Shown here: positions 708 through 63,801 of the stretch, piece by piece
Layout: each line of letters begins with the position of its first letter
Numbering within the stretch: position 1 is the first letter of the stretch
Assembly: GCA_965228345.1 (NCBI GenBank)
Contig: CBDDHH010000004.1
Span: 663,133-727,132 of the forward strand
DNA: 64,000 nucleotides
Source: Alphaproteobacteria bacterium
Lineage (GTDB): Bacteria; Pseudomonadota; Alphaproteobacteria; UBA7985
Direction of reading: 5' to 3'
Made by a program: the position numbers and the translations under genes
Notes under the pieces: generated by a model
Told to the model about the DNA's origin: nothing
What the model saw: only the letters and a program-made list of their open reading frames with translations
Database searches by the model: none

Positions 708-1088
708 ATGGCTGATCTCGATAAACTTGTAAAAGACTTAAGCACCTTGACGGTTTTGGAAGCCGCCGAACTGGCAACCAAGCTGGAAGAAGAGTGGGGC
801 GTTTCCGCTGCTGCGCCCGCGGCCGTTGCGGTCGCCGCGCCCGCTGACGGCGGGGGTGCCGTTGCCGAAGCCCAGACCGAATTTGACGTTGTCTTGGCCT
901 CCGTCGGGGGCAACAAGATTGCGGTCATTAAAGAGGTCCGCAGCGTCGTCGATGGCCTGGGCTTGAAAGAAGCCAAAGAGTTGGTCGATTCTGCGCCCAA
1001 GGCGATCAAAGAAGGCGTTTCAGAGGCCGAAGCCAACGAAATTAAAGAGAAGTTGGAAGCTGCGGGCGCTTCGATCGAAATCAAGTAA
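708..1088 (+). CDS. rplL: 50S ribosomal protein L7/L12
   Basis: [33 protein letters not shown]...Ala-rich hinge...[40 protein letters not shown] is the canonical L7/L12 architecture. A GAGGAA Shine-Dalgarno precedes it. Its TAA stop overlaps the TA at the MITE boundary. Confidence 0.95.
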
Positions 1089-1286
1089 TACCAACGGCAA
1101 AAAAAGTTGACACGTTTTTTGCCGTTTTATGTCTCGCGGCAGAAACGCTTCGCGTTTCGCCTCCGATGGGGCCTTCGCTTATGCCCCGAGGCGCGTGTCC
1201 GCTGTTCTCGGGCCGCTACGGGGGCCGCAGTCGCGCGGCCCTTATACCAGCGAACATAGGAGTCATTCTCAGTCGCCGCTGGTATA
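1088..1286 (+). mobile_element. MITE copy R1 (IS630-related multi-hairpin element)
   Basis: Left TIR ATACCAACGGCAAAAAAAGTTGACAC and right TIR region ...CGCCGCTGGTATA. Internal hairpins GGCAGAAACGCTTCGCGTTTCGCC and GGGGCCGCAGTCGCGCGGCCC. Sits on the rplL stop codon. Confidence 0.8.
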
Positions 1287-1516
1287 AGCACGCGCGCTTA
1301 GGAATTTATGATTTGGAAGAGGCCGTTTTCGGCCGTAGAGTCCGCGTGTTTTTTGGCACGAGTCGTCTTGTTGATGGGGTGTCCCTTGTGGGGTGACGTT
1401 CTTCCGCGCGGAATCCATCGCGGGTTGGAGACGGTGGAGACCACCTCGTCAGGCTTTGACCTGCCGCCCGTTTAGAGAAGGAAAACGGGAGTTTCATACC
1501 AGTTTTCCTTGAGAAT

Positions 1517-1777
1517 GACTCTTTATGAACTGGTATAATACCAGCGGCGATTTAAAATGACTCTTTTATTCGCTGGTATAAGGGCCGCGACTGCGGCCCC
1601 CGTAGCGGGCTCCAAGCCCGAAGGGCGCAGGGAACGCCAGCGCCAAAAACAAGCGGCCCCGAGATGAGCTAAGAAAGCGCCTCGGGGTATAAGCGAAGGG
1701 GCGGCGAAACGCGAAGCGTTTCTGCCGTGAGACATAAAACGGCTAAAAAAGTGTCAACTTTTTTCGCCGTTGGTATA
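1517..1777 (-). mobile_element. MITE copy R2 (inverted orientation, partial terminal-hairpin duplication)
   Basis: Near-identical to copy R7 (31507..31746). Ends ...TTTTTTCGCCGTTGGTATA. Contains the same GGCGAAACGCGAAGCGTTTCTGCC hairpin. Confidence 0.8.
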
Positions 1778-2002
1778 AGGTGTCGGGGGCGCTTTGTCTC
1801 ATTCCCGAAACGAGTCTGCGATCATGCCAAAGGGCGTTTCACAATTTCGCGCTTCGTGAACCTTGCGCAGGTGTGCGCTCACGAATTTTTCTGAGCCTTT
1901 GGCGAAAGACGCCGCGCCGGGCGCTGGCCCCGCTTGGGTTCCGGAGGCAAAGTGGGGGGCGTCGCAAGTTCGCGGTGCCCTTCAATCTATAGGAGACATG
2001 AC

Positions 2003-2434
2003 ATGTACAAAGCAGCCTTCACTCTTATTTCATCTCTTGCCTTAACTGTCGGTGTGGCCTGGGCCGATACCTTGCAGGTCAAAGTTACGATCCCAGAAGG
2101 CGATCGCAAGCTCGGTGCACTCAGGGTGGGTGTTTTCAAGTCGCAAGCACAATTTGATACTGGAGAGCCCGAGCTTGGGCTGATGCAAGAAGCGGTTCAT
2201 GGCGAAAACACGATCGCGATCGCGGATCTGCCTGCGGGCACTTACGGGCTTTCGGTGTTTCTTGATCGCAACGACGATGAGGAACTGAATAGTGGCCTAT
2301 TTGGCGCGCCCAGCGAGCCTTACGGATTTTCGCGCAACCCCACCATTCGCTTTTCCGCCCCCAAGTTCGATGACTGGAGCTTCCAATATGGTGGAAGCGG
2401 CGGCGAATTGGTTGTCGATTTGCTCGGGATCTAG
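2003..2434 (+). CDS. DUF2141 family secreted protein (signal peptide)
   Basis: AGGAGA Shine-Dalgarno 6 nt upstream of the ATG at 2003. N-terminal signal peptide MYKAAFTLISSLALTVGVAWA. Conserved GAPSEPYGFSRNP...PKFDD core resembles DUF2141. Confidence 0.6.
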   Translation: MYKAAFTLISSLALTVGVAWADTLQVKVTIPEGDRKLGALRVGVFKSQAQFDTGEPELGLMQEAVHGENTIAIADLPAGTYGLSVFLDRNDDEELNSGLFGAPSEPYGFSRNPTIRFSAPKFDDWSFQYGGSGGELVVDLLGI

Positions 2435-2436
2435 TC

Positions 2437-3976: not shown

Positions 3977-4168
3977 ATACCAACGGTCATAAAAAGTGAC
4001 CTTTTCATGTCCGTTTCGTGTCTCACGGCAGAAACGCTTCGCGTTTCGCCGCCCCTTCGCTGATACCCCGAGGCGCTTTCTTAGCTCATCTCGGGGCCGC
4101 TACGGGGGCCGCAGTCGCGGCCCTTATACCAGCGAATAAATGAGTCATTTTAAATCGCCGCTGGTATA
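3977..4168 (+). mobile_element. MITE copy R3
   Basis: TAATACCAACGGTCATAAAAAGTGACC left end, ...TAAATCGCCGCTGGTATAAG right end, same internal hairpins. Confidence 0.8.
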
Positions 4169-11074: not shown

Positions 11075-11077
11075 CTC

Positions 11078-12442: not shown

Positions 12443-13307
12443 GACCAAGCCCCAGCGACTCGCCAAGTGGATCGCGCAGTCGGGCCTCTGTTCCCGCCGC
12501 GTTGCAGAGGATTGGATTTTGGGGGGGCGGGTCTCGCTCGACGGGCGACCAACCCTGGAGCCTGCGCAAAACGTCGACACAGCTGCGCGCATTCGCGTTG
12601 ATGGAGCCGCCCTGCCCGACCCGCAGGCGATCCGCCTGTTTCGCCTGCACAAGCCGCGCGGCCTATTGGTGGCAGAACGTGATCCCCAGGGGCGGGCGAC
12701 TGTTTTTGAGGCCTTGCCCAAATCCTTGCCTCGCCTCCACGCGGTCGGACGTCTCGACCTCAATTCCGAAGGGTTATTGCTGCTGACCACCGATGGCGCG
12801 TTTAAGCGGCGCCTCGAACTGCCCGAAACGGGTTTGCCGCGCACTTATCGCGTGCGCGCCTTCGGGCGCTTGGGGCCACGCGAGGTGCGCCTCATGGCCC
12901 AAGGCCTTACGATCGACGGGCAAGTCTATGGTCCCATTGAGGCGAGGATCGAACCGCGCCCTGGCAAGCCCGAGCCGCCGCCCTACGCGGCCGCCAACCA
13001 TTGGCTGCGCATGACCCTGCACGAGGGTAAAAATCGCGAAATCAGAAAGGTCTTGGCGCACTTTGGCCTGCAGGTTTCGCGCTTGATCCGGGTTTCCTAC
13101 GGTCCCATTTCGCTCGGCAGCCTTAAGACAGGTGAAGTTCGGGAGGTAGGAAAGAAGGAACTGCAGACAGCTTTCGACCTAGGCCCACGGCCCCAAACGG
13201 GCTGGGCCAGAGCCAAACCGCGGCCTAATCGTCCTGGTCAACGCCGCCCCAAGCCATCTGCGAATCGACCAGGACCCGGGCGCACCAACCACAGCCGTGG
13301 CCGCTAA
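12435..13307 (+). CDS. rluB: 23S rRNA pseudouridine synthase, RluB/RsuA family (S4 domain + catalytic domain, basic C-terminal tail)
   Basis: QRLAKWIAQSGLCSRRVAEDWILGGRVSLDG (S4) and HAVGRLDLNSEGLLLLTTDG (PseudoU_synth_2 catalytic Asp motif). Arg/Pro-rich tail. Confidence 0.8.
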   Translation: MTETKPQRLAKWIAQSGLCSRRVAEDWILGGRVSLDGRPTLEPAQNVDTAARIRVDGAALPDPQAIRLFRLHKPRGLLVAERDPQGRATVFEALPKSLPRLHAVGRLDLNSEGLLLLTTDGAFKRRLELPETGLPRTYRVRAFGRLGPREVRLMAQGLTIDGQVYGPIEARIEPRPGKPEPPPYAAANHWLRMTLHEGKNREIRKVLAHFGLQVSRLIRVSYGPISLGSLKTGEVREVGKKELQTAFDLGPRPQTGWARAKPRPNRPGQRRPKPSANRPGPGRTNHSRGR

Positions 13308-13911
13308 ACCGGGGTTCGTCACCCTACGCGCAGGAACCTTCGGCGGCAAACGCCTGCCAATCCCTGCCGACGGGTCTGTGCGCCCGACCACCGACCGCGC
13401 GCGCGCCCAGGCCTTTGATTTGCTCGACCGACACTTCCGCTTTGTAGATGGCCGCGGCCGCTGGTCCACGGCGCACGTTCTCGACGCCTTTGCCGGCACG
13501 GGCGCGCTGGGGTTCGAAGCGCTTAGCCGCGGCGCTAAAACGCTGACCCTTTGGGAGATCAACCCGCGTCAAGCCGCTGCGCTTGCCCAAACCGCCCGCA
13601 GCTTCAAGACTCGGCGGGTGCATGTCAGGGAACAAGATGCTCTCAACGCCCCCGTGCCCGCCACCGCCGCAGATCTGGTGTTTTTGGACCCCCCCTACGG
13701 GCGCGCCTTGGTCGGCCGTGCCCTTGAAGTCTTGGTTCGACAGGGATGGATTTCGGGCCATACCGTGATCTATGCGGAAACCGAAGCCACGGCGCGCCAA
13801 CCAGACGGCTATGAAGTGTTGACCGAACGTACCACCGGAAAGTCGGTAGTTCGGATTCTTATGCGGGCGGTAGCGCCGAAGACTCTCTATACCAGCGGCG
13901 ATTTAAAATGA
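13297..13911 (+). CDS. rsmD: 16S rRNA (guanine966-N2)-methyltransferase RsmD
   Basis: LDAFAGTGALGFEALSRGA (SAM-binding) and VFLDPPY motifs. The last ~7 codons (…TLYTSGDLK*) are supplied by the MITE R4 terminus. Confidence 0.8.
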   Translation: MAAKPGFVTLRAGTFGGKRLPIPADGSVRPTTDRARAQAFDLLDRHFRFVDGRGRWSTAHVLDAFAGTGALGFEALSRGAKTLTLWEINPRQAAALAQTARSFKTRRVHVREQDALNAPVPATAADLVFLDPPYGRALVGRALEVLVRQGWISGHTVIYAETEATARQPDGYEVLTERTTGKSVVRILMRAVAPKTLYTSGDLK

Positions 13912-14086
13912 CTCTTTTATTCGCTGGTATAAGGGCCGCGACTGCGGCCCCCGTAGCGGCCCCGAGATCGGCGCGAAAGCGCCTCGGGGTATAAGCGAAG
14001 GCCCCGTCGGAGGCGAAACGCATCGCGTTTCTGCCGTGAGACACGAAACGGCCATGAGAAGGTCACTTTTTATGACCGTTGGTATA
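13889..14086 (-). mobile_element. MITE copy R4
   Basis: CTATACCAGCGGCGATTTAAAATGACTC...GACCGTTGGTATAAG. Overlaps the rsmD 3' end. Confidence 0.8.
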
Positions 14087-26095: not shown

Positions 26096-27571
26096 ATGTC
26101 GGCGCTTCTAAAATTATCCTTGTCGCAAGCGGCGGCCAAACTGCAGGCGCGGGAGGTCAGCGCGTCCGAGCTGGCACAGGCGGCGCTGACCGCCAGCCAA
26201 GACATGGATAACGGTGCCTTTGTAACGCCAACACCCGACTTGGCGCAGGCCATGGCGGCGGCGGCCGACGCCCGCCTGGCCAAAGGCGAGGCAGGGGTGA
26301 TTGAGGGCGTGCCGCTGGGCATCAAGGACCTTTTTGCGACCCAAGGTGTCAAGACGACATGCGGCTCGCGCATCTTGGAAAATTTCGTGCCGCCGTACGA
26401 ATCGACCGTAACGCAAAACCTCCGCGATCAGGGTGCCGTGTTTGTCGGTAAGCTCAATATGGACGAATTTGCCATGGGTTCGGCGAATCTGAACCCAACC
26501 TTCGGCCCCGTGACCAACCCCTGGCGCGGCGCCGACGGCAAGCCCCTGGTTCCGGGCGGATCCTCGGGCGGGTCGGCGGCGGCGGTTGCGGCGGGCCAGG
26601 TCTTGGGGGCCACGGCGACGGACACGGGCGGGTCGATTCGCCAACCTGCGGCCTTTTGCGGTGTGACGGGCCTGAAGCCGACCTACGGTCGCTGCTCGCG
26701 CTACGGCATCATCGCCTTCGCCAGTTCCTTGGACCAAGCCGGGCCAATCGCCCGCACCGTGGCCGACACGGCTTTGTTGCTCCAGGCCATGGCCGGGCAC
26801 GACCCTAAGGATTCGACCTCGGTCGATCACCCGGTCCCCGACTACGCCGCGCAGCTCGGCGGGTCGATCAAGGGCAAGAAGATCGGTGTCCCCGGGGAGT
26901 ACGTGGTCGCGGGCATGTCGGCAGAGATTTCGGCGCTCTGGGACCAGGGAAGGCAATGGTTGGCAGCGGCGGGCGCGCATCTAATCGACATGAACTTGCC
27001 CCACACCAAGTACGCCTTGCCGTGCTACTACATCATCGCCCCAGCCGAGGCGTCGTCGAACCTGTCCCGCTACGATGGCGTGCGCTACGGCCTGCGGGTC
27101 GATCCACCTGCAGACTCCGACGACAAGTTGCACGACATGTACCGCGCGACCCGCGCGGCAGGTTTCGGCGATGAGGTTCAGCGCCGCATCATGATCGGGG
27201 CCTATGTGCTTTCGGCAGGGTTTTATGATGCATACTACAATCAGGCGCGCAAGGTACGCACCTTGATCGCGCGCGACTTCGAACGGGCGTTCGCGGACGG
27301 GATCGATGCTATCCTAACGCCGACAACCCCCAGTCCCGCCTTCGCCATCGGCGACGAACCGAGCGACCCGGTGGAAATGTACCTGAACGATGTGTTCACG
27401 GTCCCCACGTCGATGGCAGGTTTGCCCGGTATCTCGGTGCCGGCGGGCTTGTCCAGCGATGGCAAGCCCTTAGGTCTGCAATTGATCGGCCAACCCTTCC
27501 AGGAAGGCGCACTTATGAATATAGCACAAAAACTTGAAGAAGCCGCCGCCTTCCCCTTTCTGGGGACCTGA
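26096..27571 (+). CDS. gatA: Glu-tRNA(Gln) amidotransferase subunit A
   Basis: Amidase signature [14 protein letters not shown] and ...[20 protein letters not shown]. 491 aa. Confidence 0.9.
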
Positions 27572-27600: not shown

Positions 27601-27634
27601 TAAAAAAAAGACCCGCAATCGCGGGCCTTTCCTT
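27601..27634. terminator. Putative intrinsic terminator (possibly bidirectional) after gatA
   Basis: A-run, GACCCGCAATCGCGGGCC stem-loop, then TTTCCTT. Confidence 0.4.
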
Positions 27635-27661
27635 ACGTGCCAAAGAACGCCGTGAGTCCTT

Positions 27662-27887
27662 ATACCAACTCCGCTAAAAATTGACATTTTTAGCGGAGTT
27701 TTGTCTCACGGCAGAAACGCGTTGCGTTTCGGCTTTTGGGGTTGCGGTCTCACCTCGCTCGCTCAGCCCGACCGCGCCTTCGCTTATACCCCGAGGCGCT
27801 TTCTTAGCTCATCTCGGGGCCGCTACGGGGCCGCAGTCGCGGCCCTATACCAGTTCATAAAGAGTCTGTTTTAAGGAGAACTGGTAT
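27662..27887 (+). mobile_element. MITE copy R5 (variant with CTCGCTCGCTCAGCC segment and alternate terminal hairpin)
   Basis: CTTATACCAACTCCGCTAAAAATTGACATTTTTAGCGGAG...ATACCAGTTCATAAAGAGTCTGTTTTAAGGAGAACTGGTATTAG. Confidence 0.75.
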
Positions 27888-35687: not shown

Positions 35688-35689
35688 TA

Positions 35690-36302: not shown

Positions 36303-36493
36303 ATACCAACGGCGAAAAAAGCTGACACTTTTTCAGCCGTTTTATGTCTCACGGCAGAAACGCTTCGCGTTTCGCCGCCCCTTCGCTGATACCCCGAGGC
36401 GCTTTCTTAGCTCATCTCGGGGCCGCTACGGGGGCCGCAGTCGCGACCCTTATACCAGCGAATAAAAGAGTCATTTTAAATCGCCGCTGGTAT
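36303..36493 (+). mobile_element. MITE copy R9 (inserted into or abutting the IS427-like element)
   Basis: CTTATACCAACGGCGAAAAAAGCTGACAC...AAATCGCCGCTGGTATTATG. Confidence 0.8.
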
Positions 36494-36695
36494 TATGCCC
36501 CAGAACTTAACCCAATGGAGAATGTTTGGGCATATCTGCGCGCAAATAAACTCGCCGTAACTGTCTTCGACACTGTTGAGCAGATCGTCGAAAAGTGTGG
36601 GGATGCCTGGAACTTCTTCACCAATGACAAACCGCCTCTCATGTCAATCACACAAAGAAATTGGATACGCGTCAATTGATCCCGCCGTTGGTATA
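36494..36695 (+). mobile_element. IS630-family IS 3' remnant: transposase C-terminus + right TIR
   Basis: Encodes ...YAPELNPMENVWAYLRANKLAVTVFDTVEQIVEKCGDAWNFFTNDKPP, the (Y)SPELNPIE..W..LK end of IS630/Tc1-type DDE transposases. Terminates CCGCCGTTGGTATAAG, identical to MITE termini. Confidence 0.6.
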
Positions 36696-43991: not shown

Positions 43992-44040
43992 TCGGAACCA
44001 AACGAAGACACATGGATGTGGGTCGTTCCATGATGCAGTT

Positions 44041-44238
44041 ATACCAACGGTCATAAAAAGTGACCTTTTCATGACCGTTTCGTGTCTCACGGCAGAAACG
44101 CTTCGCGTTTCGCCTCCGACGGGGGCCTTCGCTTATACCCCGAGGCGCTTTCGCGCCATTCTCGGGGCCGCTACGTGGGCCGCAGTCGCGGCCCTCATAC
44201 CAGCGATCATAAGAGTCATTTATAATTGCCGCTGGTAT
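44041..44238 (+). mobile_element. MITE copy R10
   Basis: ATACCAACGGTCATAAAAAGTGACC...ATTGCCGCTGGTATTAG. Its terminal TTA forms the folD stop codon on the opposite strand. Confidence 0.8.
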
Positions 44239-45098
44239 TAGAATGTCCACCCCAGTTCAACCTGACGGCGATGGGCCTTGAGCGCGTTTTGCATGAGCAT
44301 AGAGACCGTGACAGGGCCGACTCCGCCGGGGACGGGCGTGACCCAAGAAGCCATGTCCAGCGCCTCGTCCATCTTCACATCCCCGACAAGGCCGTCAGCG
44401 GTCTGGTTGATGCCAACGTCGATGACGGCGGCGCCGGGCTTGATCATGTCCCCGCCGATCAGCCCAGCCTTTCCCACCGCGACCACGAGGGCATCGGCAC
44501 GGCGGGAATGCGACGCAACAGATCGGGTCATATGGTGACAGACCGTCACCGTCGCGCCTTCCGCCACGAGCATGAGGGCGACGGGCTTGCCGACAATTTC
44601 TGAATGACCGATCATCACAACCTCCAACCCCTTCAGGGTCAGGCCCGTGGACTTGAGCAGTTCGACCGACGCCGCCGCCGTGCAGGGCAGCAGCGCATGG
44701 TCCCCATAAACGATATTGCCGATTGAGGCTGGGTTCATTCCCTCGACGTCTTTGAGGGGGTGAATCGCGCCTTGCAAGGTACGAGGGTTTAAGTGCGCAG
44801 GTACGGGACGCTGTAAAATAATACCTGTGACTTTTGGGTCATCGTTCATCGCCACCAGGCGCGCCTTGGCCTGATCCTGGCTGATATGACCGTTCCAATA
44901 CTGTTCGTCGAACGGAATGCCCACACGCTCGGCCAAGCGGCGCTGGTTACGAATATAAACTTTCACCTCCTCCACCGCACCAATAGCGATGGAACAGAGC
45001 TTCCCGATTGGGGGCAGCGCCACCAAGTCCGCTTGAACTTGTGACATAAGGCGGTCGCGCAGCGGGGCACCGCGCAGCAGTCGAGGGTCATGATCCAT
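44238..45098 (-). CDS. folD: Bifunctional methylenetetrahydrofolate dehydrogenase/methenyltetrahydrofolate cyclohydrolase
   Basis: ...IILQRPVPAHL...VVMIGHSEIVGKPVALML...VIDVGINQ...PVPGGVGPVTVSML are conserved FolD blocks. Confidence 0.85.
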   Translation of the reverse strand: MDHDPRLLRGAPLRDRLMSQVQADLVALPPIGKLCSIAIGAVEEVKVYIRNQRRLAERVGIPFDEQYWNGHISQDQAKARLVAMNDDPKVTGIILQRPVPAHLNPRTLQGAIHPLKDVEGMNPASIGNIVYGDHALLPCTAAASVELLKSTGLTLKGLEVVMIGHSEIVGKPVALMLVAEGATVTVCHHMTRSVASHSRRADALVVAVGKAGLIGGDMIKPGAAVIDVGINQTADGLVGDVKMDEALDMASWVTPVPGGVGPVTVSMLMQNALKAHRRQVELGWTF

Positions 45099-45109
45099 AG
45101 GAGCTTCTT

Positions 45110-45348
45110 ATACCAACGGCGAAAAAAGTTGACACTTTTTCAGCCGTTTTATGTCTCACGGCAGAAACGCTCCGCGTTTCGCCTCCCCTTCGCTGATACC
45201 CCGAGGTGCTTTCTTAGCTCATCTCGGGGCCGCGTGTTTTTGGCGCGGGCGTTCCCTGCGCCCTTTGGGCTTGGAGCCCGCTACGGGGGCCGCAGTCGCG
45301 GCCCTTATACCAGCGAATAAAAGAGTTATTTTAAATCGCCGCTGTTAT
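45110..45348 (+). mobile_element. MITE copy R11
   Basis: CTTATACCAACGGCGAAAAAAGTTGACAC...TTAAATCGCCGCTGTTATTAG, with an extra internal GC-rich hairpin. Confidence 0.8.
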
Positions 45349-45500
45349 TAGCGCAACTCTCAAGAAAGTTGACGCCTTTTGCGAACGTCCGCCGAGGCCA
45401 CGGGGAACCACGACTTGATGCCACAAGTATGGCCGCCGGACTCTGAACGTCCGCGCAACATAAGGATGACAGCGTCACGTTCCCAACCTAAACACACACT

Positions 45501-50741: not shown

Positions 50742-51023
50742 ATACCAGCGGCAAGTATGAGTGACTCTTAATGTTCGCTCATATAGGGGCCGCGACTGCG
50801 GCCCCCGCAGCGGCCCCGAGAATAGCAAGAAAACGCTCATATTCTGAGGCCTCAGCGTAAATCAAAGAATTGAAAATTGACCACAAAATGTAGCGCCTAT
50901 CTCGCTCAAATGACACTACATATTGCGGCTCATTGATCCGAAGTTGAATTATGCTGAGGTCTCATTCCATTAGACAAGACACGAAACGGACATAAAAAGG
51001 TTATTTTTTATGACCGTTGGTAT
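50742..51023 (-). mobile_element. MITE copy R12 (divergent ~150-bp internal segment)
   Basis: ATACCAGCGGCAAGTATGAGTGACTC...GGGGCCGCGACTGCGGCCCCCGCAGCGGCCCCGAG...TTATGACCGTTGGTAT. Central part differs from other copies. Confidence 0.65.
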
Positions 51024-51766: not shown

Positions 51767-54447
51767 CACCAAGCCTAGCCTTAAGCATTGGCGCGGCTTA
51801 CATAGGACTACTGTTCCTCATCGCCTTCATCTCGGACCGTCGGGCGCGGCGGGCGGGGGTACGCGGTCAGGTCTCTGCCTGGGTCTTTACCCTGTCCATT
51901 TCGGTTTATTGCACCTCCTGGACCTTCTACGGGTCGGTCGGGTTGGCCAGCCGCTCGGGCTTGGAATTCACCGCGATTTACTTAGGCCCCACCCTGATCT
52001 TCCTGGGCTGGTGGTTCGTGTTGCGCAAAATCGTCCGCATCACCAAGGAACAACGCCTCACCTCCATCGCCGACTTTATTTCGTCGCGGTTCGGGCGATC
52101 GGCCTCAGTCGCGGCGACGGCAACGCTGATCGCTCTGATCGCTTCGACCCCCTATGTCGCTTTGCAGCTCAAGGCGGTGGCAACTTCGTTTGACCTCATC
52201 GCCGGCCGCCAAGCCGCAGGCGCGGCTTTCTGGCACGATACGGCTTTTTGGGTCGCCGCCGCCATGGCCTTATTTGCCGTTCTGTTTGGTGCGCGCAGCG
52301 GCACTGCGGACGAACACTACCCGGGGGTTATCAGCGCCATCGCCTTTGAGGCGGTGGTTAAGCTGATCGCCCTCATGGGGGTGGGCCTGTTTGTCGTTCT
52401 GCACCTACGCGGCCTAGACTGGCAGAACCTGATTAGCCCGGAGGATTTGCGCCGCATCACCACTTTGCCCGATCAGGCAGGCGGGCGCTGGGTTTCCTTG
52501 CTGGTCCTTTCCGCCATTGCAATCGTGTGCCTGCCGCGCCAGTTTCAGGTTACAGCGGTGGAGGCGGCGGACGAGGAACATTTCCGCACCGCCGCCTGGC
52601 TGTTTCCGCTCTATTTGCTGCTGATCTCGGCCTTCGTGATTCCCATCGCCATCGCCGGTCATGTCTTTGTCGGTGCCAACGCCAACCCAGATCAATTTGT
52701 TCTGACCGTCCCGCTTGCGCTCGGCAACGAATCCATGGCCATGCTCGCCTTCATCGGCGGGTTCTCCTCCGCCACTTCCATGGTCATTGTCGCCTCCATC
52801 GCCCTATCGATCATGATGTCGAACCACATTGTGGTGCCTTTGTTGTTTCGGCTCGCGGCGCAGGAAGGGCGCACCTACCTGGGCCGACGCTTGCTGGCGG
52901 TGCGCCAAGGCACGATCGTCTTCGTCTTGGGCATGGCCTTCCTCTACTACCGCACGGCAGCGCAGTCCGATGCCTTGGCAGCCATGGGCCTGATCGCCTT
53001 CGTCGGGGTCGCCCAGTTCTTTCCGCCGCTGCTCGCCGCCCTGTTCTGGCGTCAAGCAGCAGAGCGTGGCGCGCTCGCCGCACTCGTCATCGGCGGTAGC
53101 CTCTGGGCCTATACTTTGCTGCTGCCAACCCTCCTTCCCGACGCCCGTTGGATTGAGGACGGGCCCTTGGGTCTTGCCTTGCTTCGCCCCCAGGGCCTGC
53201 TCGGCGCGACGGGCCTTGATCCTGTGGTCCACTCGCTGCTTTGGTCGCTGCTCGGCAACACCTTGGCCTTGGGACTCGTGTCTGCCTACGCCCGCCGCAG
53301 CCCGCTAGAGCATTTACAGGAACGCCTGTTCGTTGATGCGTTTCAGCAGAGCGTGGGCGCCGAGAGCCGGGTCTGGCGCCGCTCAGCAGGCCTCGACGAA
53401 CTGCGGGTCTTGGCCCGCGAAGTGCTGGGGGAGGCCTCGGCCAACCGCCTGTTTGCAAAAATCCAAAATCCTTCCGCAGATGGCCAACAGGCAACCTCAG
53501 CCCTGATCTATGCAGTCGAACAAGAAATGGCGGCAACCTTCGGTGCCGCCACGGCTCGTCGCCTGGTGGCGCGCGTGGCACGGGGCGAAAGCTTGTCGAT
53601 GGACGACATGGCCGCGATCCTAGACCAGACTCAACATGCCCTCGACCAGGCCCGCGCACTGAAGGAAAAGTCCGACCAGCTGCAGGAAACCGCCCGATCT
53701 CTGCGCCAGGCCCTAGTGCAGCTTAGGCGCCTCGACCGCTTCAAAGACGACTTTCTGGCACAGGTCAGCCATGAGCTGCGCACGCCCATGACCTCCCTGA
53801 AGGCCTTCACCCAGATTTTGCAGGGCGAACAGGACCTGCCGCCCGCAACGCGGGAGAAGTACTTGAACATTATCGCCCAGGAGGCCGATCGTTTAACAGG
53901 CTTGCTTGACGAATTGTTAGACGTGCAGCACAGCACCGAAACAACCCGGCGGGACAAGGTCGCGCCCATCTCGCTCGACCAACCGCTGACCGCCGCGCTC
54001 AGTGTGTTTGTGGGCGACCAAGATGCGGGACGTTTGGACGTGACCCTGGCCCCCGCCCTAGCCGACATCCACGTGAAGGCGACCAGCGCACGCCTGCGTC
54101 AGGTCTTTATCAATCTGATTTCTAACGCCCTCAAATATGCGAGTGCCGAACAAAAGCCCCTTCGTGTCGATGTTCGCGCGGAACAACGCGATGATCACGC
54201 GATCATCTGGGTGAGCGATTCAGGGCCTGGCATCGATCCCACGTTCGCCGACTCGCTCTTCTTACGCTTTACTCGCGATGGCGCAGCCCAAGTCCCAGGC
54301 AGTGGTCTGGGGCTTGCGATCTGCCGGCAAATCATGCTGGCCATGAACGGGTCGATCAACCTGGCCGCCGACCAGGGCCCAAAGGGCTTTAGCGGCGCGT
54401 GTTTTGAGCTGCGCTTGCCCCTCGCCAAACCCGCAGCACCGACCTAG
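51763..54447 (+). CDS. Sensor histidine kinase with N-terminal sodium:solute symporter (SLC5/SSS) domain (CbrA-like)
   Basis: ~13-TM SSS domain (…FVLRKIVRITKEQRLTSIADFISSRFG…). HisKA H-box SHELRTPMTSLKAF. HATPase_c (…GSGLGLAICRQIM…). No receiver domain. 3' end abuts IS debris. Confidence 0.8.
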   Translation: MTPSLALSIGAAYIGLLFLIAFISDRRARRAGVRGQVSAWVFTLSISVYCTSWTFYGSVGLASRSGLEFTAIYLGPTLIFLGWWFVLRKIVRITKEQRLTSIADFISSRFGRSASVAATATLIALIASTPYVALQLKAVATSFDLIAGRQAAGAAFWHDTAFWVAAAMALFAVLFGARSGTADEHYPGVISAIAFEAVVKLIALMGVGLFVVLHLRGLDWQNLISPEDLRRITTLPDQAGGRWVSLLVLSAIAIVCLPRQFQVTAVEAADEEHFRTAAWLFPLYLLLISAFVIPIAIAGHVFVGANANPDQFVLTVPLALGNESMAMLAFIGGFSSATSMVIVASIALSIMMSNHIVVPLLFRLAAQEGRTYLGRRLLAVRQGTIVFVLGMAFLYYRTAAQSDALAAMGLIAFVGVAQFFPPLLAALFWRQAAERGALAALVIGGSLWAYTLLLPTLLPDARWIEDGPLGLALLRPQGLLGATGLDPVVHSLLWSLLGNTLALGLVSAYARRSPLEHLQERLFVDAFQQSVGAESRVWRRSAGLDELRVLAREVLGEASANRLFAKIQNPSADGQQATSALIYAVEQEMAATFGAATARRLVARVARGESLSMDDMAAILDQTQHALDQARALKEKSDQLQETARSLRQALVQLRRLDRFKDDFLAQVSHELRTPMTSLKAFTQILQGEQDLPPATREKYLNIIAQEADRLTGLLDELLDVQHSTETTRRDKVAPISLDQPLTAALSVFVGDQDAGRLDVTLAPALADIHVKATSARLRQVFINLISNALKYASAEQKPLRVDVRAEQRDDHAIIWVSDSGPGIDPTFADSLFLRFTRDGAAQVPGSGLGLAICRQIMLAMNGSINLAADQGPKGFSGACFELRLPLAKPAAPT

Positions 54448-54790
54448 ATAGTGTAGTCACGAGATGTTTGCCCACAGAGCGATACACCTGATATGGATAG
54501 CTGCCATGAATGAGGCGCGTTTTTGGCATATGGTGTTGCGATTCCCCTCCATCGTTTGAGGTGGAGGAGGGCATTTTCAACCAGATGCCTGATTTTGTAG
54601 AGGTCTTTGTCATGCTCGCGCTGATGCTTGCGGTTCTTTTTGGGCGGGATGACGGGCGTCATGCCCTGGCATTTAGCCTGGTCTAAGATGTCTTGGGTGT
54701 CGTATCCTCTATCGGCCAGCAGATAGTCAGCGCTTAATCCTTCGATAAGCTTCCCAGCTTAAGACCTCTGCATAACTGCGACTTCGATTT
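54444..54790 (-). pseudogene. IS5-family (IS427-group) transposase orfB C-terminal fragment
   Basis: ...LLADRGYDTQDILDQAKCQGMTPVIPPKKNRKHQREHDKDLYKIRHLVENALLHLKRWRGIATPYAKNAPHSWQLSI has the IPPK.NRK...Y..RN.VE....LK..R.IATRY.K pattern. No intact orfA. Confidence 0.7.
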
Positions 54791-54826
54791 CAGGATTCCC
54801 TGAGAGGGGAGTTTTTGTTATTTTCT

Positions 54827-55065
54827 GGCTAGGGTTCGTGGACATTAGGAATTCCCATTTCTGCAAAATTGTGTTTCAAGCTTCCAAAACGGAGGTTTCA
54901 ATGAACACAGATCGCTTTGTTGTCACAGATCAACTCTGGGATAGGATTTCAGGGTTGATTCCAGGCCGCGATGGGGTTCGCGGTGTTACTGGAAAAGATA
55001 ATCGTCTCTTCTTGGAGGCTGTGCTTTGGCGGGTGCGTGCAGGGCTCCCTTGGCGAGACTTGCTG
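54827..55065 (+). mobile_element. IS427-like element 5' fragment (left end + orfA N-terminus 54901..55065), truncated by IS3 insertion
   Basis: Near-identical to 35690..35930 (GGGTYCGTGGACATTAGG...MNTDRFVVTDQLWDRISGLIPGRDGVRGVTG.DNRLFLEAVLWRVRAGLPWRDL). Confidence 0.75.
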
Positions 55066-55105
55066 AACCGTCCCGGGTTTATCGGCGGGTGATTTGTTCA
55101 AATGT

Positions 55106-56302
55106 TAGGCAGGGCTATCGCTTTTGAGAATTTTTAGCCGCCCTGATCATATCGAGCATGAATTCGTCGTTCGATCCGGCGCGTTTTAGCTTGCCCCTCT
55201 TTGATCCCTTTGAGGGTTCGGTTTGGGCAAGGTTTAGTGCCATTCGCCGAAGTGTGGCAAAATTTTCAGGGCCGTTGCCTGTCCTATTTCGTGCGGCATC
55301 TTCGTTCATTGTCACATCCAGCACCCAATGCAAGCTGTTTTCAATCGCCCAATGAGCGCGTGTTATCTCAATTGTGCGCTTGGCTGACACAGGCGTACTC
55401 AAGAGGAAGTAGCGTTCGTGATGACTGATTTTGTCTCCAATCTCACGGCGTGCGCTAACCTTTGCAATTGCCTGAAGTCCAGGCCAGTCATGGCGTTCCA
55501 TGAGCCATTCAACATCATGGCTGATCAAAGCAGTACGAGTTTCGATACGCCCATGACCTGCGCTAATCTCTTCTGCAGTATCACACACCTGAGTATTCGC
55601 ACGATCATCTAAGTACAGCTTCACGTCCTCGTATAAGCTGCCCTGATTGCGTTTGAGGGCGAGCGCGTAATCGCCACCAGCGTCTGTCACAGATTGTGCG
55701 GTATTGCGTTGGGTATGCATGGCGTCTGCTGTAACGATACGCCCCTTGAGCGAGAGCATCTCCAGCAGAGCAGGCAAAGCCGTGATCTCGTTGGACTTTT
55801 CGTCAACGGCGACCTGACCAAGAACCAACTTTTCCTTGACTGAAAAGGCCTGCACCAGGTGCAGGGCGGAGCGAGCTTTGGCGCGATCAAACGAGCGGCG
55901 AAGCGTCTTTCCATCAACGGCAATCACGTCACCAAGTTGATCAGAAAAATCCTCAACAAAACCAAACAGTGCTTTGTGAAGGGACTTTGGATCAAGCGCG
56001 TTAAACAAGTCAGAGAACGCGTCGTGACTTGGAATACCGTGCTTTAGCGACATAAATGTCCGTAAAAACGGCTCCTTCGTCTTTGCAAACAGGGACATAT
56101 CACAGCACCCCTCACCGCCGCTAAGCGTGCATAGAAGCCCGATCATCAGCATCTCGTGCAGATCGTGACGGGTCGCGTTGCTCCTGCGTGGGTCATCAAC
56201 TCCTTCGAATATATGGGAAAACTCTTCCATGGCGCGTCTCCTACATGGGGTTACGCGCTCCTCATGAATCGATTGGCACCTCCTTCATAGATATTTTTTC
56301 AA
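55106..56302 (-). mobile_element. ISAs1-family IS nested inside the IS3 element (transposase CDS 55115..56230)
   Basis: 371-aa H-repeat-associated/ISAs1-type DDE transposase (…VDGKTLRRSFD…ITRAHWAIENSLHWVLDVTMNEDAARNRTGNGPENFATLRRMALNL). IRs AGGGCTATCGCTTTTGAGAA / AGGGGAATCGCTTTTGAAAA. Flanking ~11-bp direct repeat AAATGTTAGGC. Confidence 0.75.
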
Positions 56303-56321
56303 AAGCGATTCCCCTGAAATG

Positions 56322-57233
56322 TTAGGCGGCTAGATCATAGCCATGTTTTTCTTTTAAGTATGTCTCCTCTTTTTGGCTAGGGGTTAGGTATCCGATGGAT
56401 GAGTGGATGCGTTTGGTGTTGTACCACTTGATCCACCTGGCGGTTTGCCACTCGACATCTGCTCTGGATTTCCAGGGGCCGATGCGCTCAACGACCTCTG
56501 TTTTGTACAGGCCGATGGTGCTTTCTGCGAGCGCGTTGTCGTAGCTGTCGCCCACGCTGCCCACCGACATATCAACGCCTGCCTCTTCTAGGCGTTCGCT
56601 GTATTTGAAGGACATGTATTGGCTGCCGCGATCACTATGGTGAATGGGCTTGATGCCATCTACCGATATGGGTCTGCGTTGATGCAGGGCCTGCTCCAGG
56701 GCGTCCAGCACGAAGGCCGTTGTCATAGAGGTGCTGACCTTCCACCCCACCATGCGCCGTGCAAACACGTCGATGACGAAGGCCACATAGACATCTCCCT
56801 ACCAGGTTTTGACGTAAGTGAAATCACAGACCCATAACTGGTTAGGGTAAGAGGCATGGAACGCCCTGTTCACCCGATCCTCTGGGCAGGGCAGTGCCTT
56901 ATCAGGATTGGTGGTGATGACGGGCTTTCCCCGCACCAGGCCTTGATAACCAGCCCTTTGCATCAATCGCTCTACCGTGCACTTGGCGATGGCATAGCCT
57001 TCAGACTTGAGCTGATGCCAAACCTTGCGGGTGCCATAAATGCCATCGCTCTCATCCTGATAGACGCGCTTGATCTCAGCAAGATCAGCCTCATCCTGAT
57101 TTGCCTTACGACTGCGCAGATCAGGGTTGCGCGCCATAGAAGCATGACGGCGATAGGTTGAGGGCGCGATGGACAAAACCTTCGCCATCGGCTCGGCACC
57201 GAACTCTTGGATATGATCGCTCATAAAGCTCAC
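56322..57233 (-). pseudogene. IS3-family transposase orfB with in-frame TAG replacing a conserved Trp codon
   Basis: Reading ...CDFTYVKTW*GDVYVAFVIDVFARRMVGW. IS3 consensus has W at this position (TGG->TAG). Otherwise an intact rve domain. Confidence 0.7.
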
Positions 57234-57565
57234 GACTTGGGAAACGGGCGGCCGAGCTCCGCCTGTGCGAAATAAGCCGAGGCCTTCTTCAAGATCTCAT
57301 TGGCTTGGCGAAGGTGGCGGACCTCACGCTCCAGTTCTTTGATCCGCGCCTTATCTTCCGTGTTCAAACCAGGGCGCTCACCTGCATCCTTCTGGGCCTG
57401 ATGACACCAGGAGCGAAGGCTATCGGGAGAACAGCCTAAGCTGCTGCCAACGGCGATACAGGCCGCTTTATCACTGGCATAGGAACCACGCTGCTCGGAA
57501 AGCATCCGCACAGCACGCTCACGAAACTCCGCATTATAACGGGGGGTGTATCTTTTGTTCGACAT
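57230..57565 (-). CDS. IS3-family transposase orfA
   Basis: MSNKRYTPRYNAEFRERAVRMLSEQ...KARIKELEREVRHLRQANEILKKASAYFAQAEL is a typical IS3 orfA (HTH + leucine zipper). Confidence 0.8.
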   Translation of the reverse strand: MSNKRYTPRYNAEFRERAVRMLSEQRGSYASDKAACIAVGSSLGCSPDSLRSWCHQAQKDAGERPGLNTEDKARIKELEREVRHLRQANEILKKASAYFAQAELGRPFPKS

Positions 57566-58693: not shown

Positions 58694-58924
58694 ATACCAA
58701 CTCCGATAAAAATTGACACTTTATCGGAGTCTTGTCTCACGGCAGAAACGCCTCGCGTTTCGCCTCCCCTTCGCTTATACCCCGAGGCGCTTTCTTAGCT
58801 TGTCTCGGGGCCGCTGCGGGGACCGCAGTCGCGACCCTTATACCAACGATCAAAAGAGTGATTTTCAATCGCCGCTGGTATTGTACCAGCGAATATAGGA
58901 GTCACTTTTAATTGCCCCTGGTAT
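58694..58924 (+). mobile_element. MITE copy R13 (terminal hairpin duplicated in tandem)
   Basis: ATACCAACTCCGATAAAAATTGACACTTTATCGGAG...CGCCGCTGGTATTGTACCAGCGAATATAGGAGTCACTTTTAATTGCCCCTGGTAT. Confidence 0.8.
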
Positions 58925-61334: not shown

Positions 61335-61338
61335 TTTT

Positions 61339-61366: not shown

Positions 61367-61537
61367 GCTTGGCTGTACTGAAGGCTTGCTGAACTGGTCA
61401 GAGATTGAGGCGCTTCTATCGTCAATCTATGCCTCGCCCAAAGCTTGGCCTAGCGATCCACTTTTGAATGGGCGACTCAAAACAGCCGAAAAATTCGGTG
61501 AAGGGCTCAAAAACAGCAGGGCTTCGTGGCCCTATAC

Positions 61538-61938
61538 CAATTTTCATGAATGGTGACCCAATTTAACCCGAGTTCTGGATAAGACCATTATTTGGCGTTG
61601 GTGCGAACAGATAGATATCTATCTGTTCGCACCAACGCCCAAAATAGACTGGTGATAGATAGGCTCATGAGGGGTGGCTCGCGTTGTGATAGACAAAAGC
61701 CTAGAATCACAAATTGAACGATTTGTGAATCCCCCTCATCTCAGGTTCCTATCCAGAATCGGGGTAGTTTATGAAAATTCTCGGTCTCACGGCAGAAACG
61801 CGTTGCGTTTCGGCTTTTTTGGGGCGGTCTTTACTCGCTCGCTACGCTCGCTCAGCCTGACCGCGCGACGGGGCCTCCAACCTACGTCGCGGGCCTTATA
61901 CCAGGGCATAAAGAGTTATTCTTAAGGGAAATTGGTAT
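61538..61938 (+). mobile_element. Degenerate MITE copy R14 carrying a ~200-bp internal insert that includes a perfect 23-bp-arm palindrome (61594..61639)
   Basis: Left end ATACCAATTTTCATGAATGGTGACCCAAT (like R6). Right part TCTCACGGCAGAAACGCGTTGCGTTTCGGC...CTCGCTCGCTCAGCC...ATACCAGGGCATAAAGAGTTATTCTTAAGGGAAATTGGTAT (like R5). Internal GGCGTTGGTGCGAACAGATAGAT|ATCTATCTGTTCGCACCAACGCC. Confidence 0.6.
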
Positions 61939-62078
61939 GAGAGCCCAATCCGCCATACGGGAGTCGGCAAAAACTTCTTGGCATGCAGCATACCTTGCCT
62001 TAATTGTGCGTTTAACGCAAAAATAAAACCCAAATTTGGACCTTTTTTAGGGCGAGTTGGACGAGACGAGGGGGACCC

Positions 62079-63026
62079 TTGGATACTTTCTTTGGCATGC
62101 GCTTGTTCGCACAGACCGTTCAGTCTGGCTCGTTTTCTGAGGCAGGTCGTACCTTGGGAATGGCACCCAGCTCGGTTTCCCGCCAAATTTCTATGCTGGA
62201 GGATCGTCTAGGCGTCCGTTTGCTCAATCGGTCGACCCGCCAGTTGCACCTAACCGAGGCGGGTCAAATCTACTACGAGCGGACAACCAACATCTTGCAT
62301 GCGGTTGAGGACGCTAACTTGGCGGTCGCGGAACTGGAGTCGAAACCGCGCGGTCACTTGCGATTGAACATCCCCGTAACCTTTGGCCGTCGCCATATTG
62401 TGCCAGCCCTGTCGGGGTTCATGACGCTCTATCCTGAGGTTGAAATGGACGTCACTATGACCGATGCGATGATTAATGTCATTGAAGATGGGGCTGACTT
62501 GGTGGTGCGGATCGGCGAACTGAAAGACAGTTCGCTGATCGCCAAGAAACTTGCGCCCAACAATCGGGTTGTGTGCTGCTCACCAGACTATTTAGAGAAA
62601 CACAAGAAGCCACAGTCACCCAGGGATCTCACAGACCATCGCTGTCTCACCTATAGGCGCGCTGTCAATCCCGACATGTGGCACTTCGCCGATGCGGCGG
62701 GAAATGTCGAGCATGTTAAGATCAATGCAGCCTTTCACGTCAACAATGGTGAAGCCCTCTTGCCCCTTGCCCGCGATAGCCAGGGGCTGATCTTGCTCCC
62801 AACTTACGTGGTTGGCAACGATTTGCGGCGCGGCACCCTTGTGCCTGTTCTCACCGACTATCAGGCCAGCCCCATTAGCATCGACACAGGCATCTATGCG
62901 CTCTACCCGTCCAACCGTCACATGTCCCCCAAGGTGCGAGCTTTTGTTGACTATGTTTGCGGCCATTTTGGCACCCCGCCCTATTGGGATAACCTAAGTC
63001 CCGCAACAGACGCTGCTGAGGTCTAA
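62079..63026 (+). CDS. LysR family transcriptional regulator
   Basis: N-terminal HTH MRLFAQTVQSGSFSEAGRTLGMAPSSVSRQISMLEDRLGVRLLNRSTRQLHLTEAG plus LysR substrate-binding domain. Lower-GC DNA. Confidence 0.85.
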   Translation: MDTFFGMRLFAQTVQSGSFSEAGRTLGMAPSSVSRQISMLEDRLGVRLLNRSTRQLHLTEAGQIYYERTTNILHAVEDANLAVAELESKPRGHLRLNIPVTFGRRHIVPALSGFMTLYPEVEMDVTMTDAMINVIEDGADLVVRIGELKDSSLIAKKLAPNNRVVCCSPDYLEKHKKPQSPRDLTDHRCLTYRRAVNPDMWHFADAAGNVEHVKINAAFHVNNGEALLPLARDSQGLILLPTYVVGNDLRRGTLVPVLTDYQASPISIDTGIYALYPSNRHMSPKVRAFVDYVCGHFGTPPYWDNLSPATDAAEV

Positions 63027-63617
63027 ATGCGTCGCGACGGCGGGCAGGCGTGGCAACGCATGTTGTCGGGCCGTCGCCTCAATTTGCTCAATCCCAGCCC
63101 GTTCGATATCGAAATTGACGACATCGCCCAGGGCTTGTCAAAGGTTGCGCGCTGGAACGGCCAAACCCTCGGCGATAATGCCTTTTCCGTAGCGCAGCAT
63201 TCCTTGCTGGTGCTGACTTTGCTTGATCAAGAAAGCGGCCCCTATCCTGCCCCCGTTCGGCTAGGGGCATTGCTTCACGATGCCGCCGAATACGTGATCG
63301 GGGATTTGATCAGTCCGTTCAAACGCGCCCTCAATTTGGACTACAAGAATTTTGAGAATCAAATTTTGGCCGCAGTTCGTCAGCGTTTTGGCTTAAAGGC
63401 CTCCATGACACGCATGGAAGCGCGCGCCTTGAAACGGGCCGACTCACAGGCAGCATACCTGGAGGCGACCCAACTAGCAGGGTTTTCGCCCAAAGAAACC
63501 GCCGCGCTATTTCTACGTCCCAAGAGCGAAATTCACCTCACCCCGCTCACGCCCCCCGCCGCCAAGGCTGCATTCCTTGAGGCTTTTGAAGGTCTATGCC
63601 ACACCAGTTTTCCTTGA
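63027..63617 (+). CDS. HD-domain phosphohydrolase (YfbR-like 5'-deoxynucleotidase family)
   Basis: HSLLVL...LLHDAAEYVIGDLISP metal-binding H...HD motif. 196 aa. Start codon directly follows the LysR stop (TAAATG). Confidence 0.65.
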   Translation: MRRDGGQAWQRMLSGRRLNLLNPSPFDIEIDDIAQGLSKVARWNGQTLGDNAFSVAQHSLLVLTLLDQESGPYPAPVRLGALLHDAAEYVIGDLISPFKRALNLDYKNFENQILAAVRQRFGLKASMTRMEARALKRADSQAAYLEATQLAGFSPKETAALFLRPKSEIHLTPLTPPAAKAAFLEAFEGLCHTSFP

Positions 63618-63653
63618 GACTAACTCTTTTAAGACCTCTGCACGAGGGCCTAA

Positions 63654-63801
63654 TACCAGTTCTCTTTAAATAAGACTCCTTATGAACTGGTATAGGGCCG
63701 CGACTGCGACCCCCGTAGCGGCCCCGAGATCGGCGCGAAAGCGCCTCGGGGTATAAGCGAAGGCCCCGTCGGAGGCGAAACGCGATGCGTTTCTGCCGTG
63801 A
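63654..63801 (-). mobile_element. MITE copy R15 (3'-truncated)
   Basis: ATACCAGTTCTCTTTAAATAAGACTCCTTATGAACTGGTATAGGGCCGCGACTGCGACCCCCGTAGCGGCCCCGAG...GGCGAAACGCGATGCGTTTCTGCCGTGAG. Lacks the distal TIR. Confidence 0.7.

Follow-up and report, generated by a model that had tools for sequence, protein, structure and literature searches.

The window analysed here is a 64,000-nucleotide (64-kb) stretch of contig CBDDHH010000004.1 (assembly GCA_965228345.1, positions 663,133 to 727,132) from an uncultured alphaproteobacterial lineage, and it is densely interspersed with short, hairpin-rich repeats. [quoted passage not shown] Fifteen MITEs and two solo end-hairpins, 17 profile matches in all, occupy 4.7% of the window. 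A sequence-only reading of the same DNA had placed copies of such a family at 15 positions and had taken them for deletion derivatives of two nearby IS630-family remnants, mobilized in trans; all 15 positions hold family members, at or within ~20 bp, and the two remnants are real and bounded by family-type ends. The elements were compared with those of a sister genome, the metagenome-assembled genome (MAG) OZ245893.1 (3.25 Mb), whose shared genes are 85-89% (about 87%) identical in nucleotide sequence to those of the window. The sample of full-length copies comes from the window together with 59 sister-genome stretches of 8 kb each.

Elements of the window

A complete element consists, in order, of end A, three hairpins (H2, H3 and H4), a TTA trinucleotide and end C. 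The first copy, a full MITE of 198 bp at 1088-1285 on the plus strand (positions 1-191 of the profile model), is flanked by TAA duplications at 1086-1088 and 1285-1287 that are the stop codon of rplL; this gene, folD, and the LysR and RsmD-like methyltransferase genes named below were identified among the window's open reading frames (ORFs) with Pfam. A 41-bp solo end-hairpin of the CCAGTT type (1496-1536, plus strand) adjoins the next copy, with one TAA common to both. That copy, at 1538-1776 on the minus strand, is a full MITE of the long 239-bp variant, with a 48-nt insert and a TAA duplication on the plus strand (TTA/TTA in the orientation of the MITE). Position 1517 of the sequence-only reading does hold family sequence; it lies inside the solo hairpin, and the full copy starts at 1538. 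Further full copies are found at 3977-4167 (191 bp, plus strand, TAA duplication), at 13889-14085 (197 bp, minus strand, flanked by CTA and TAA) and at 27662-27887 (226 bp, plus strand, TTA duplication), the last with a 33-nt insert, an ACTCCG-type A end and a CCAGTT-type C end. The copy at 13889-14085 contributes the last seven codons and the stop codon of the RsmD-like methyltransferase ORF (13297-13911).

Two regions bring MITEs and IS remnants together. In the first, a partial MITE at 31001-31150 on the plus strand, running from a variant A end through H4 (model positions 1-158), stops at the TTA that precedes the left end of an IS630-family 5' remnant (31151-31440, plus strand), which comprises the left inverted repeat TACCAGCGGCGGTAGCTTTTGACTCG and an N-terminal helix-turn-helix (HTH) ORF of 71 aa. 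A full MITE of the 239-bp long variant follows at 31508-31746 on the minus strand, one of its termini mutated to AGACCA. In the second region, a full MITE of 194 bp (35494-35687, minus strand) supplies the final codons and stop codon of a LysR ORF (34609-35526) and adjoins an IS5-family fragment at 35688. Between that fragment and an IS630-family 3' remnant lies a full MITE of 191 bp at 36303-36493 (plus strand, TTA duplication). The 3' remnant itself (36494-36694, plus strand) retains the last 61 codons (YAPELNPMENVW...) and the right inverted repeat, which reads TACCAACGGCGGGATCAATTGACGCG in reverse complement.

In the right-hand third of the window, a full MITE of 198 bp (44041-44238, plus strand) has a TTA duplication at 44238-44240 that serves as the minus-strand stop codon of folD, and a full MITE of the long 239-bp variant lies at 45110-45348 (plus strand, TTA duplication). 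The 282-bp variant at 50742-51023 (minus strand, TCA duplication) has family ends around an unrelated middle and is an old insertion, also present in the sister genome. A full MITE of 188 bp identified by its profile match (58694-58881, plus strand) is adjoined by a 42-bp solo end-hairpin (58883-58924, plus strand). The family member that the sequence-only reading placed at 61538 proved to be a 404-bp variant (61535-61938, plus strand) with the family terminal repeats, H2, extra internal sequence and differing flanking triplets. The last element, at 63653-63850 on the minus strand (end approximate), was likewise recognized by its profile match; its C end and core are intact and its A end has decayed.

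Distribution and conservation of the family

The search profile was built from the 11 complete window copies, which align end to end, and it recovers the family. In the window there are 14 copies of the core hairpin CGGCAGAAACGCNNNGCGTTTCGSC, where shuffled sequence gives an expectation of 0, and 13 of GGGCCGCAGTCGCGGCCC, where 0.02 would be expected; the end signature TACCA-N14-TGAC, expected 5.8 times, is present 32 times, nearly always at element ends. Repeat finding likewise places the positions of the earlier reading into families, on both strands. Across 46 aligned copies from the two genomes, mean column identity is 89%. Full-length copies (n=69) range from 175 to 399 bp, mostly 190-250 bp, with modes at 196-198 and 245-249 bp. 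The MITE is non-coding, as indels of 1, 8, 33 and 48 nt between copies disrupt every reading frame. A small protein was considered, since an ATG/GTG ORF of ~50 codons runs through many copies, and was rejected because the 1-nt and 8-nt indels break its frame.

The family is dispersed well beyond the window. The profile yields 106 matches in 472 kb of the sister genome, and a zero-truncated Poisson fit to matches per 8-kb tile estimates ~290 copies for that genome as a whole; copy density in the window is ~2.5 times higher. This density is high, as the sequence-only reading had noted; its word "exceptional" overstates the case, for known top families are comparable, with >120 copies for Correia elements and up to 711 for ERIC (PMC10969869). 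That at least three subvariants exist was borne out: A ends are of four types and C ends of three, and some copies carry inserts of 8, 33 or 48 nt. Mean pairwise identity is 82% among window copies, which mix several A- and C-end types, versus 91% among those of the sister genome, a difference suggesting that the window may hold several older subfamilies and the sister genome a more recent single burst. Viral contigs searched for the family gave no matches, nor did metagenomes of the Joint Genome Institute (JGI) searched with a 42-nt element-specific pattern; a 25-nt H2 pattern matched in these metagenomes only within an unrelated IS91-like gene.

Anatomy and folding

The typical element is 191-198 bp long and a second size class, of 239-249 bp, carries the 48-nt insert; inserts of 8 or 33 nt are rarer. 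End A is a near-perfect 15-bp hairpin with a TGAC loop (TACCAACGGCGAAAAAAGT-TGAC-ACTTTTTCGCCGTT). It is followed by H2 (GGCAGAAACGC-TTC-GCGTTTCGCC), H3 (CCCCGAGGCGC...TCTCGGGG) and H4 (GGGCCGC-AGTC-GCGGCCC) and, after the TTA, by the end C hairpin (TACCAGCG...CGCTGGTA). Behind the long terminal repeat of each end comes a short, inverted stub of that repeat, which makes both ends hairpins, and H2-H4 form a GC-rich core between them. The sequence-only reading was right about the consensus of the ~26-bp terminal repeats, about the nesting of hairpins and about there being two end-hairpin types (CCAGCG...CGCTGG and CCAGTT...AACTGG).

The consensus folds into five hairpins, far beyond what shuffled sequence does (z = -6.5 as RNA and -8.7 as DNA). 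In the 46 copies from two genomes, the core stems are paired in 98-100% of cells and are virtually invariant, and it is the loops that vary. Base pairs changed on both sides are confined to the terminal hairpins, with six such pairs in end A and two in end C. This covariation is expected if both arms of an end-hairpin descend from the two inverted repeats of one parental IS, and it is therefore not evidence for a functional RNA. A known structured RNA family was ruled out, because an Rfam scan of the whole window at the gathering threshold gave no match in any MITE; over 44020-45370, which contains two copies, there was none even at E <= 1.

The 48-nt insert (GGCGC.GGCGTTCCCTGCGCC CTT.GGGCTTGGAGCCC) is found in the window at 1600-1650, 31570-31620 and 45225-45275. 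It also occurs free-standing, twice in tandem, downstream of the sister-genome rplL (L008 2120-2210), and has the look of an independent small repeat that was taken up by the MITE.

Ends and target-site duplication

The element proper reads 5'-TACCA...TGGTA-3', with ~26-bp terminal inverted repeats bearing the signature TACCA-N14-TGAC. Its two ends, TACCAACGGCGAAAAAAGTTGACAC and TACCAGCGGCGATTGAGAATGACTC, are identical at 18/26 positions, and each repeat has two conserved blocks, TACCA(A/G)CGG next to the cleavage site and, 14 nt further inward, a TGAC(T/A)C box. The sequence-only reading had set the ends at ATACCA; the functional unit is instead TACCA...TGGTA, flanked by a TNA duplication. 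The flanking 3-mers are identical in 46 of 68 full-length copies (TTA in 20, TAA in 10, TCA in nine and TGA in seven), and every other register gives at most 3/68 matching flanks. Where TNA stands on both sides, as it does in 55 copies, the middle base agrees in 46 versus 15.7 expected (p = 3e-17). A C directly precedes the TNA in 46/68 copies (p = 2e-10), and the wider target is loosely palindromic, (G/C)GYC-TNA-GRC(C/G). Judged by these flanks, the MITE makes a 3-bp TNA target-site duplication. A 2-bp TA duplication was rejected, since 3/68 copies match in that register and a TA reading is impossible for TGA and TCA flanks.

Elements frequently abut or nest. Abutting elements with one common TNA are found in the window at 1536-1538 and 58881-58883, and in the sister-genome loci L019, L032 and L046. 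The TTA between H4 and end C is itself occupied in three instances, by an IS630 (L046), by the IS630 remnant (window position 31151) and by a whole MITE (L008). The element ends together with their duplication (GGTA-TNA-TACC) resemble the preferred target GGYC-TNA-GRCC, which may explain why abutting and nesting are so common. The arrangement suggests an origin of end C as a 40-bp mini-element of its own.

Mobility

Comparison of related genomes, which the sequence-only reading had recommended, revealed presence/absence polymorphism at the rplL site. The sister genome has AAG TAA GCGC there, an empty site (AAGTAAGCGC), and the window has AAG TAA [TACCA...TGGTA] TAA GCAC. The MITE was thus inserted precisely at the rplL stop codon, with duplication of TAA, which establishes its mobility. 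The copy ending at 31746 is also absent from the sister genome, as judged by its right-hand junction only. The element at 50742 is present in both genomes in decayed form, ending ...CCGTTGGTA TCA AA, and its insertion is therefore older than their split. At 3977 and 27662, divergence of the sister genome prevented a clean empty-site reading. Private substitutions number fewer than two per 100 cells in the aligned copies, so that most copies are young and activity was recent.

Relation to IS630 elements of the ISAli3-like group

Both IS copies of the window are fragments and dead. An HTH N-terminus is encoded by the ORF at 31239-31454 (HTH_23 match), and the frame at 36494-36679 is the C-terminus of an IS630/DDE_3 transposase (matching DDE_3 and the C-terminal part of NF033545). 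The 5' remnant runs into the end of another element, and the 3' remnant is preceded by a MITE and the IS5-family fragment. An apparently intact relative with matching ends was read in the sister genome at locus L046, where it has the structure TTA-TACCAGCGGCAAG...CCGTTGGTA-TTA, its left terminus beginning TACCAGCGGC. The L046 transposase scores 245.9 bits against the NCBIfam IS630 model NF033545 (cutoff 100), matches DDE_3, HTH_32, HTH_33 and HTH_29 of Pfam, and is encoded by two ORFs joined at A AAA AAA C. Its closest named relative is ISAli3 of Azospirillum lipoferum 4B (57% amino-acid identity), and a search for close intact homologues of the IS in the window gave none with more than 64% identity.

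We read termini and flanks from annotated IS630-family copies of cultured alphaproteobacteria (n=13). ISAli3 in A. lipoferum has termini ATACCAGCGGC...GCCGCTGGTAT and matching TNA flanks in 4/4 copies (TGA once, TTA three times). TACCA-type termini are also found in Paracoccus liaowanqingii (matching TNA flanks in 3/3), Rhodovastum (2/2), Skermanella (1/1) and Sinorhizobium (0/1), and TACGG-type termini in Roseomonas (1/2). In total, flanks match as TNA in 11/13 copies, with all four middle bases represented. The TACCA(A/G)CGG terminus and the TGAC box at equal offset are common to all eight IS ends compared, and TACCA and the inner GAC (positions 21-23) are invariant in all ten ends compared. 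End A matches the right repeat of the window's IS at 19/26 positions and end C the left repeat at 19/26, both being the best matches. The TA duplication by which IS630 elements are recognized is not what was found: the MITEs and the ISAli3-like ISs both duplicate TNA, including TGA and TCA. This departure belongs to the whole ISAli3-like group, and the link between MITE and IS is therefore not weakened by it.

Taken together, we consider it very probable that these elements are non-autonomous transposons moved in trans by the transposase of an ISAli3-like IS630 element. Of the trans-mobilization proposed by the sequence-only reading, the IS630-type link stands, on the ends, the TNA footprint and the polymorphic insertion; the dead fragments of the window cannot themselves be the mobilizer, which would have to be an intact relative encoded outside the window. 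In IS630/Tc1/mariner elements, insertion is into TA, which is duplicated, and the transposase of the IS630-family element ISY100 alone binds the terminal repeats through its N-terminal HTH domains and acts by cut-and-paste (PMC2170065). By analogy, an ISAli3-like transposase, made from two ORFs that are apparently fused by a frameshift at A AAA AAA C, would recognize TACCA and the TGAC box at both ends and excise the element. The excised element would then be pasted into the TNA of a loosely palindromic GGYC-TNA-GRCC, and repair of a 3-nt staggered cut would yield the TNA duplication. Which transposase acts, that the TGAC box serves in binding, that a frameshift takes place and what the core hairpins may do are inferred, the biochemical steps from ISY100.

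Several points weigh against this attribution. The canonical IS630/Tc1 footprint is TA, and the 3-bp stagger proposed here is deduced from the flanks alone; about one third of the copies have no perfect duplication, plausibly through decay, adjacent insertions or recombination between copies. The best match between MITE and IS terminal repeats covers just 19/26 positions, and the core has no homology to any IS630. No intact transposase lies within the 64-kb window, so that an active partner in this genome is assumed, and the empty site is two-sided at one locus only, rplL.

A separate observation concerns expression of these ISs. Each IS630 relative that was examined and appears to be intact has a slippery run, A AAA AAA C, between its HTH and DDE ORFs (L046 6055-6075; L035, in another alphaproteobacterial MAG, at about 1815-1830; and the ISAli3 coding sequences in L060-L063). 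The RefSeq coding sequence of ISAli3 is 1067 nt long, not a multiple of 3. The run and this length are consistent with programmed -1 frameshifting.

Origin of the core

The sequence-only reading had regarded the MITEs as deletion derivatives of the IS. This did not hold, as MITE and IS have just the ~26-bp terminal repeats in common: the IS lacks the H2-H4 core, and the MITE lacks the coding region as well as the sequence that follows the IS left repeat (with its GGATTCCC motif). A simple deletion derivative was accordingly rejected, the core having no similarity to the IS interior. The sister genome does contain a second MITE family, of ~135 bp, in which the IS left repeat is fused to the last ~95 bp of the IS, including the right repeat (L019 5516-5650 and 7190-7312, L032 1105-1240). 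This family, which is absent from the window, is a true internal-deletion derivative of the window's IS630 lineage.

Sequences resembling parts of the core were seen elsewhere. In three JGI contigs, H2 is repeated exactly over 26 nt (CGGCAGAAACGCTTCGCGTTTCGCCT) within the N-terminal coding region (..AAETLRVSPEVADIFRAHGPAW..) of a gene that, from its motif alone, reads as an IS91-family-like transposase (L064 1360-1384, L065 430-454 and L066 1051-1075); an integrase-like ORF, of tyrosine-recombinase type as read by eye, is found upstream of it in the three contigs. The H2 hairpin also occurs alone in an intergenic region of the other alphaproteobacterial MAG (L035 4595-4619). Downstream of the ORF at 26096-27571, a terminator-like hairpin (window 27608-27645) has a sister-genome counterpart, GGCCCGCAGTCGCGGGCC TTCGCTTATACCCCGAAGG (L053 5890-5940), that closely resembles H4 and the start of H3 in permuted order. 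The L053 hairpin could be what is left of an old element, or the core could derive from it.

Alternative mobilizers

The attribution to an ISAli3-like transposase was weighed against two other ways in which such repeats could have spread. In one, the mobilizing transposase would belong to the IS5 family. A 3-bp TNA duplication, the very footprint found here, is made by several IS5 subgroups and by their relatives in eukaryotes, PIF/Harbinger, and IS5-family fragments (DUF4096, DDE_Tnp_1) are present at 35688-36300 and 54440-55063, one of them adjoining the MITE at 35687 through a TTA. The footprint is all that fits, however. The IS5-like terminus (GGGTCCGTGGACATTAGGGATTCCC) is unlike TACCA-N14-TGAC, and IS630 relatives possess both the exact termini and the TNA duplication, which makes a second family unnecessary; we regard mobilization by IS5 as very improbable. 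The other alternative, that the elements are REP/BIME palindromes (REPINs) spread by a RAYT transposase, or host structural or regulatory palindromes, we find harder still to credit. The elements are indeed intergenic, GC-rich, multi-hairpin, modular and mosaic; a GTAG-like motif precedes the H3 palindrome when the reverse strand is read directly, and the 48-nt insert also occurs alone, in tandem, in the sister genome. Yet REPs have neither ~26-bp terminal inverted repeats nor 3-bp duplications, one copy here is a precise insertion relative to an empty site, the termini are those of IS630 relatives, and H2 and H4 never occur outside elements within the window. The search for a RAYT gene was limited to the ORFs examined. 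The match to a structured RNA or REP family that the sequence-only reading had named as evidence against itself was not found: Rfam is empty for the MITEs, and terminal repeats and duplication are present.

Insertion at gene ends and possible co-option of the core

In 22/69 copies, an ORF of 80 or more codons has the TNA duplication as its stop codon, compared with 10.7% of all TNA sites (p = 1.6e-6); the cases comprise rplL (1086-1088), folD (44238-44240, minus strand) and 20 more across the loci. Any TNA reads as a stop codon on one of the two strands, and insertion regenerates it; gene-end insertions are consequently tolerated and common.

These insertions invite a different view of the core, namely that it is borne by a transposon and kept by selection at individual loci, as a stabilizer or processing site of RNA in 3' untranslated regions, as a terminator or insulator, or as a site for a host protein. 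The invariant pairing of its stems beside variable loops, the strong fold stability and the excess of copies exactly at stop codons are in keeping with such co-option. In addition, singleton substitutions occur at a 3.6-fold lower rate in the stem columns of the core than in its loops and linkers (7/2575 vs 25/2547, p = 0.0012). These counts are small, though, and hairpin-templated repair or the youth of the copies could also conserve the stems. Compensatory change is absent from every core stem, Rfam is empty even at E <= 1 (over 44020-45370), and orientation relative to the upstream gene is unbiased (8 co-directional, 14 opposite, p = 0.29). The scan for a promoter consensus found none in any MITE, the TTGACA in the A-end loop having no usable -10 box; the terminator scan gave only weak matches, in the A-end hairpin (3985-4001) and in H3 (1678-1695), with overall counts at shuffle level. 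On balance we judge co-option unlikely. A broader proposal combines two parts: that the ISAli3-like branch moved from TA to a previously undescribed 3-nt stagger at GGYC-TNA-GRCC, and that the core is a selected, portable 3'-end or RNA-structure module delivered onto stop codons. We hold the two together to be doubtful.

Comparison with known systems

The family most resembles ISAli3 and other alphaproteobacterial IS630s, in its termini (TACCAGCGGC...GCCGCTGGTA), in the TGAC box 14 nt inside and in the 3-bp TNA duplication. The ISAli3-type transposase, with its IS630 model match and two ORFs at A AAA AAA C, corresponds to the window remnants and to the sister-genome IS. Unlike ISAli3, which is autonomous and ~1.17 kb long, the MITEs are ~200 bp, non-coding, and possess the terminal repeats only, around a three-hairpin core of their own. 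RUP of Streptococcus pneumoniae (with IS630-Spn1) and Nezha of cyanobacteria are likewise short, non-coding, high-copy, mostly intergenic MITEs whose ends match a resident IS630, by which they are presumed to be mobilized in trans. Both are reported with the canonical TA duplication, unlike the TNA footprint here, and the palindromic ends and conserved three-hairpin core unrelated to the IS set the present family further apart. Plant Stowaway (Tc1/mariner-IS630) and Tourist (PIF/Harbinger) elements also have only terminal repeats in common with their autonomous elements, and Tourist makes a 3-bp TNA/TWA duplication. The present family differs from these eukaryotic elements, with which it has no sequence relationship, in combining an IS630-type enzyme with a Tourist-like 3-bp footprint.

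Correia elements are of similar size (about 100-200 bp) and have terminal inverted repeats, with no sequence similarity to the present family; their duplication is TA, and we know of no cognate transposase identified for them. Like REP/BIME and REPIN sequences, the MITEs are GC-rich, mosaic, extragenic palindromes of high copy number; REPs have no terminal inverted repeats or duplication and are linked to an HUH (tyrosine) transposase, whereas the MITE family has both and points to a DDE transposase. Correia elements (CREE) of Neisseria reach hundreds of copies and ~2% of the genome, insert at gene boundaries and form hairpins in transcripts, with documented promoters, IHF sites and RNase III processing (PMC10969869). 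As to footprints, the Fot branch of pogo has known TAA duplications (PMC7386202). No paper describing a TNA footprint for the ISAli3-like branch was found in the literature, and the ISfinder entry for ISAli3 may already record it. The novelty of the present family is thus modest and lies in the TNA footprint of an IS630 branch, the composite of palindromic ends and a foreign core, self-nesting and landing on stop codons.

Recognition of the family bears on the annotation of such genomes, in which hundreds of elements, here some 2-5% of the DNA, lengthen ORFs or provide their ends (LysR, the RsmD-like methyltransferase, rplL, folD), and it avoids false ORFs and miscalled "structured RNAs". The elements also break up insertion sequences and seed rearrangements. 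The 46 clean duplications, with the 11 from cultured relatives, indicate that one IS630 branch makes TNA and not TA, and this branch offers a handle on the evolution of the target stagger in the Tc1/mariner/IS630 superfamily. Because the presence of copies differs between genomes that are ~87% identical, they are ready-made strain markers.

Other insertion sequences of the window

A cluster of other ISs is found at 54440-57565. It contains an IS5-family 3' fragment (54440-54830, minus strand) and a 5' fragment (54830-55063) that is 98% identical to 35688-35921. A DDE_Tnp_1 transposase ORF (55115-56230, minus strand) follows, and next to it is an IS3-family element (ORFs at 56322-57565, minus strand), which holds the sole Rfam match of the window, an ALIL frameshift pseudoknot at 57162-57278.

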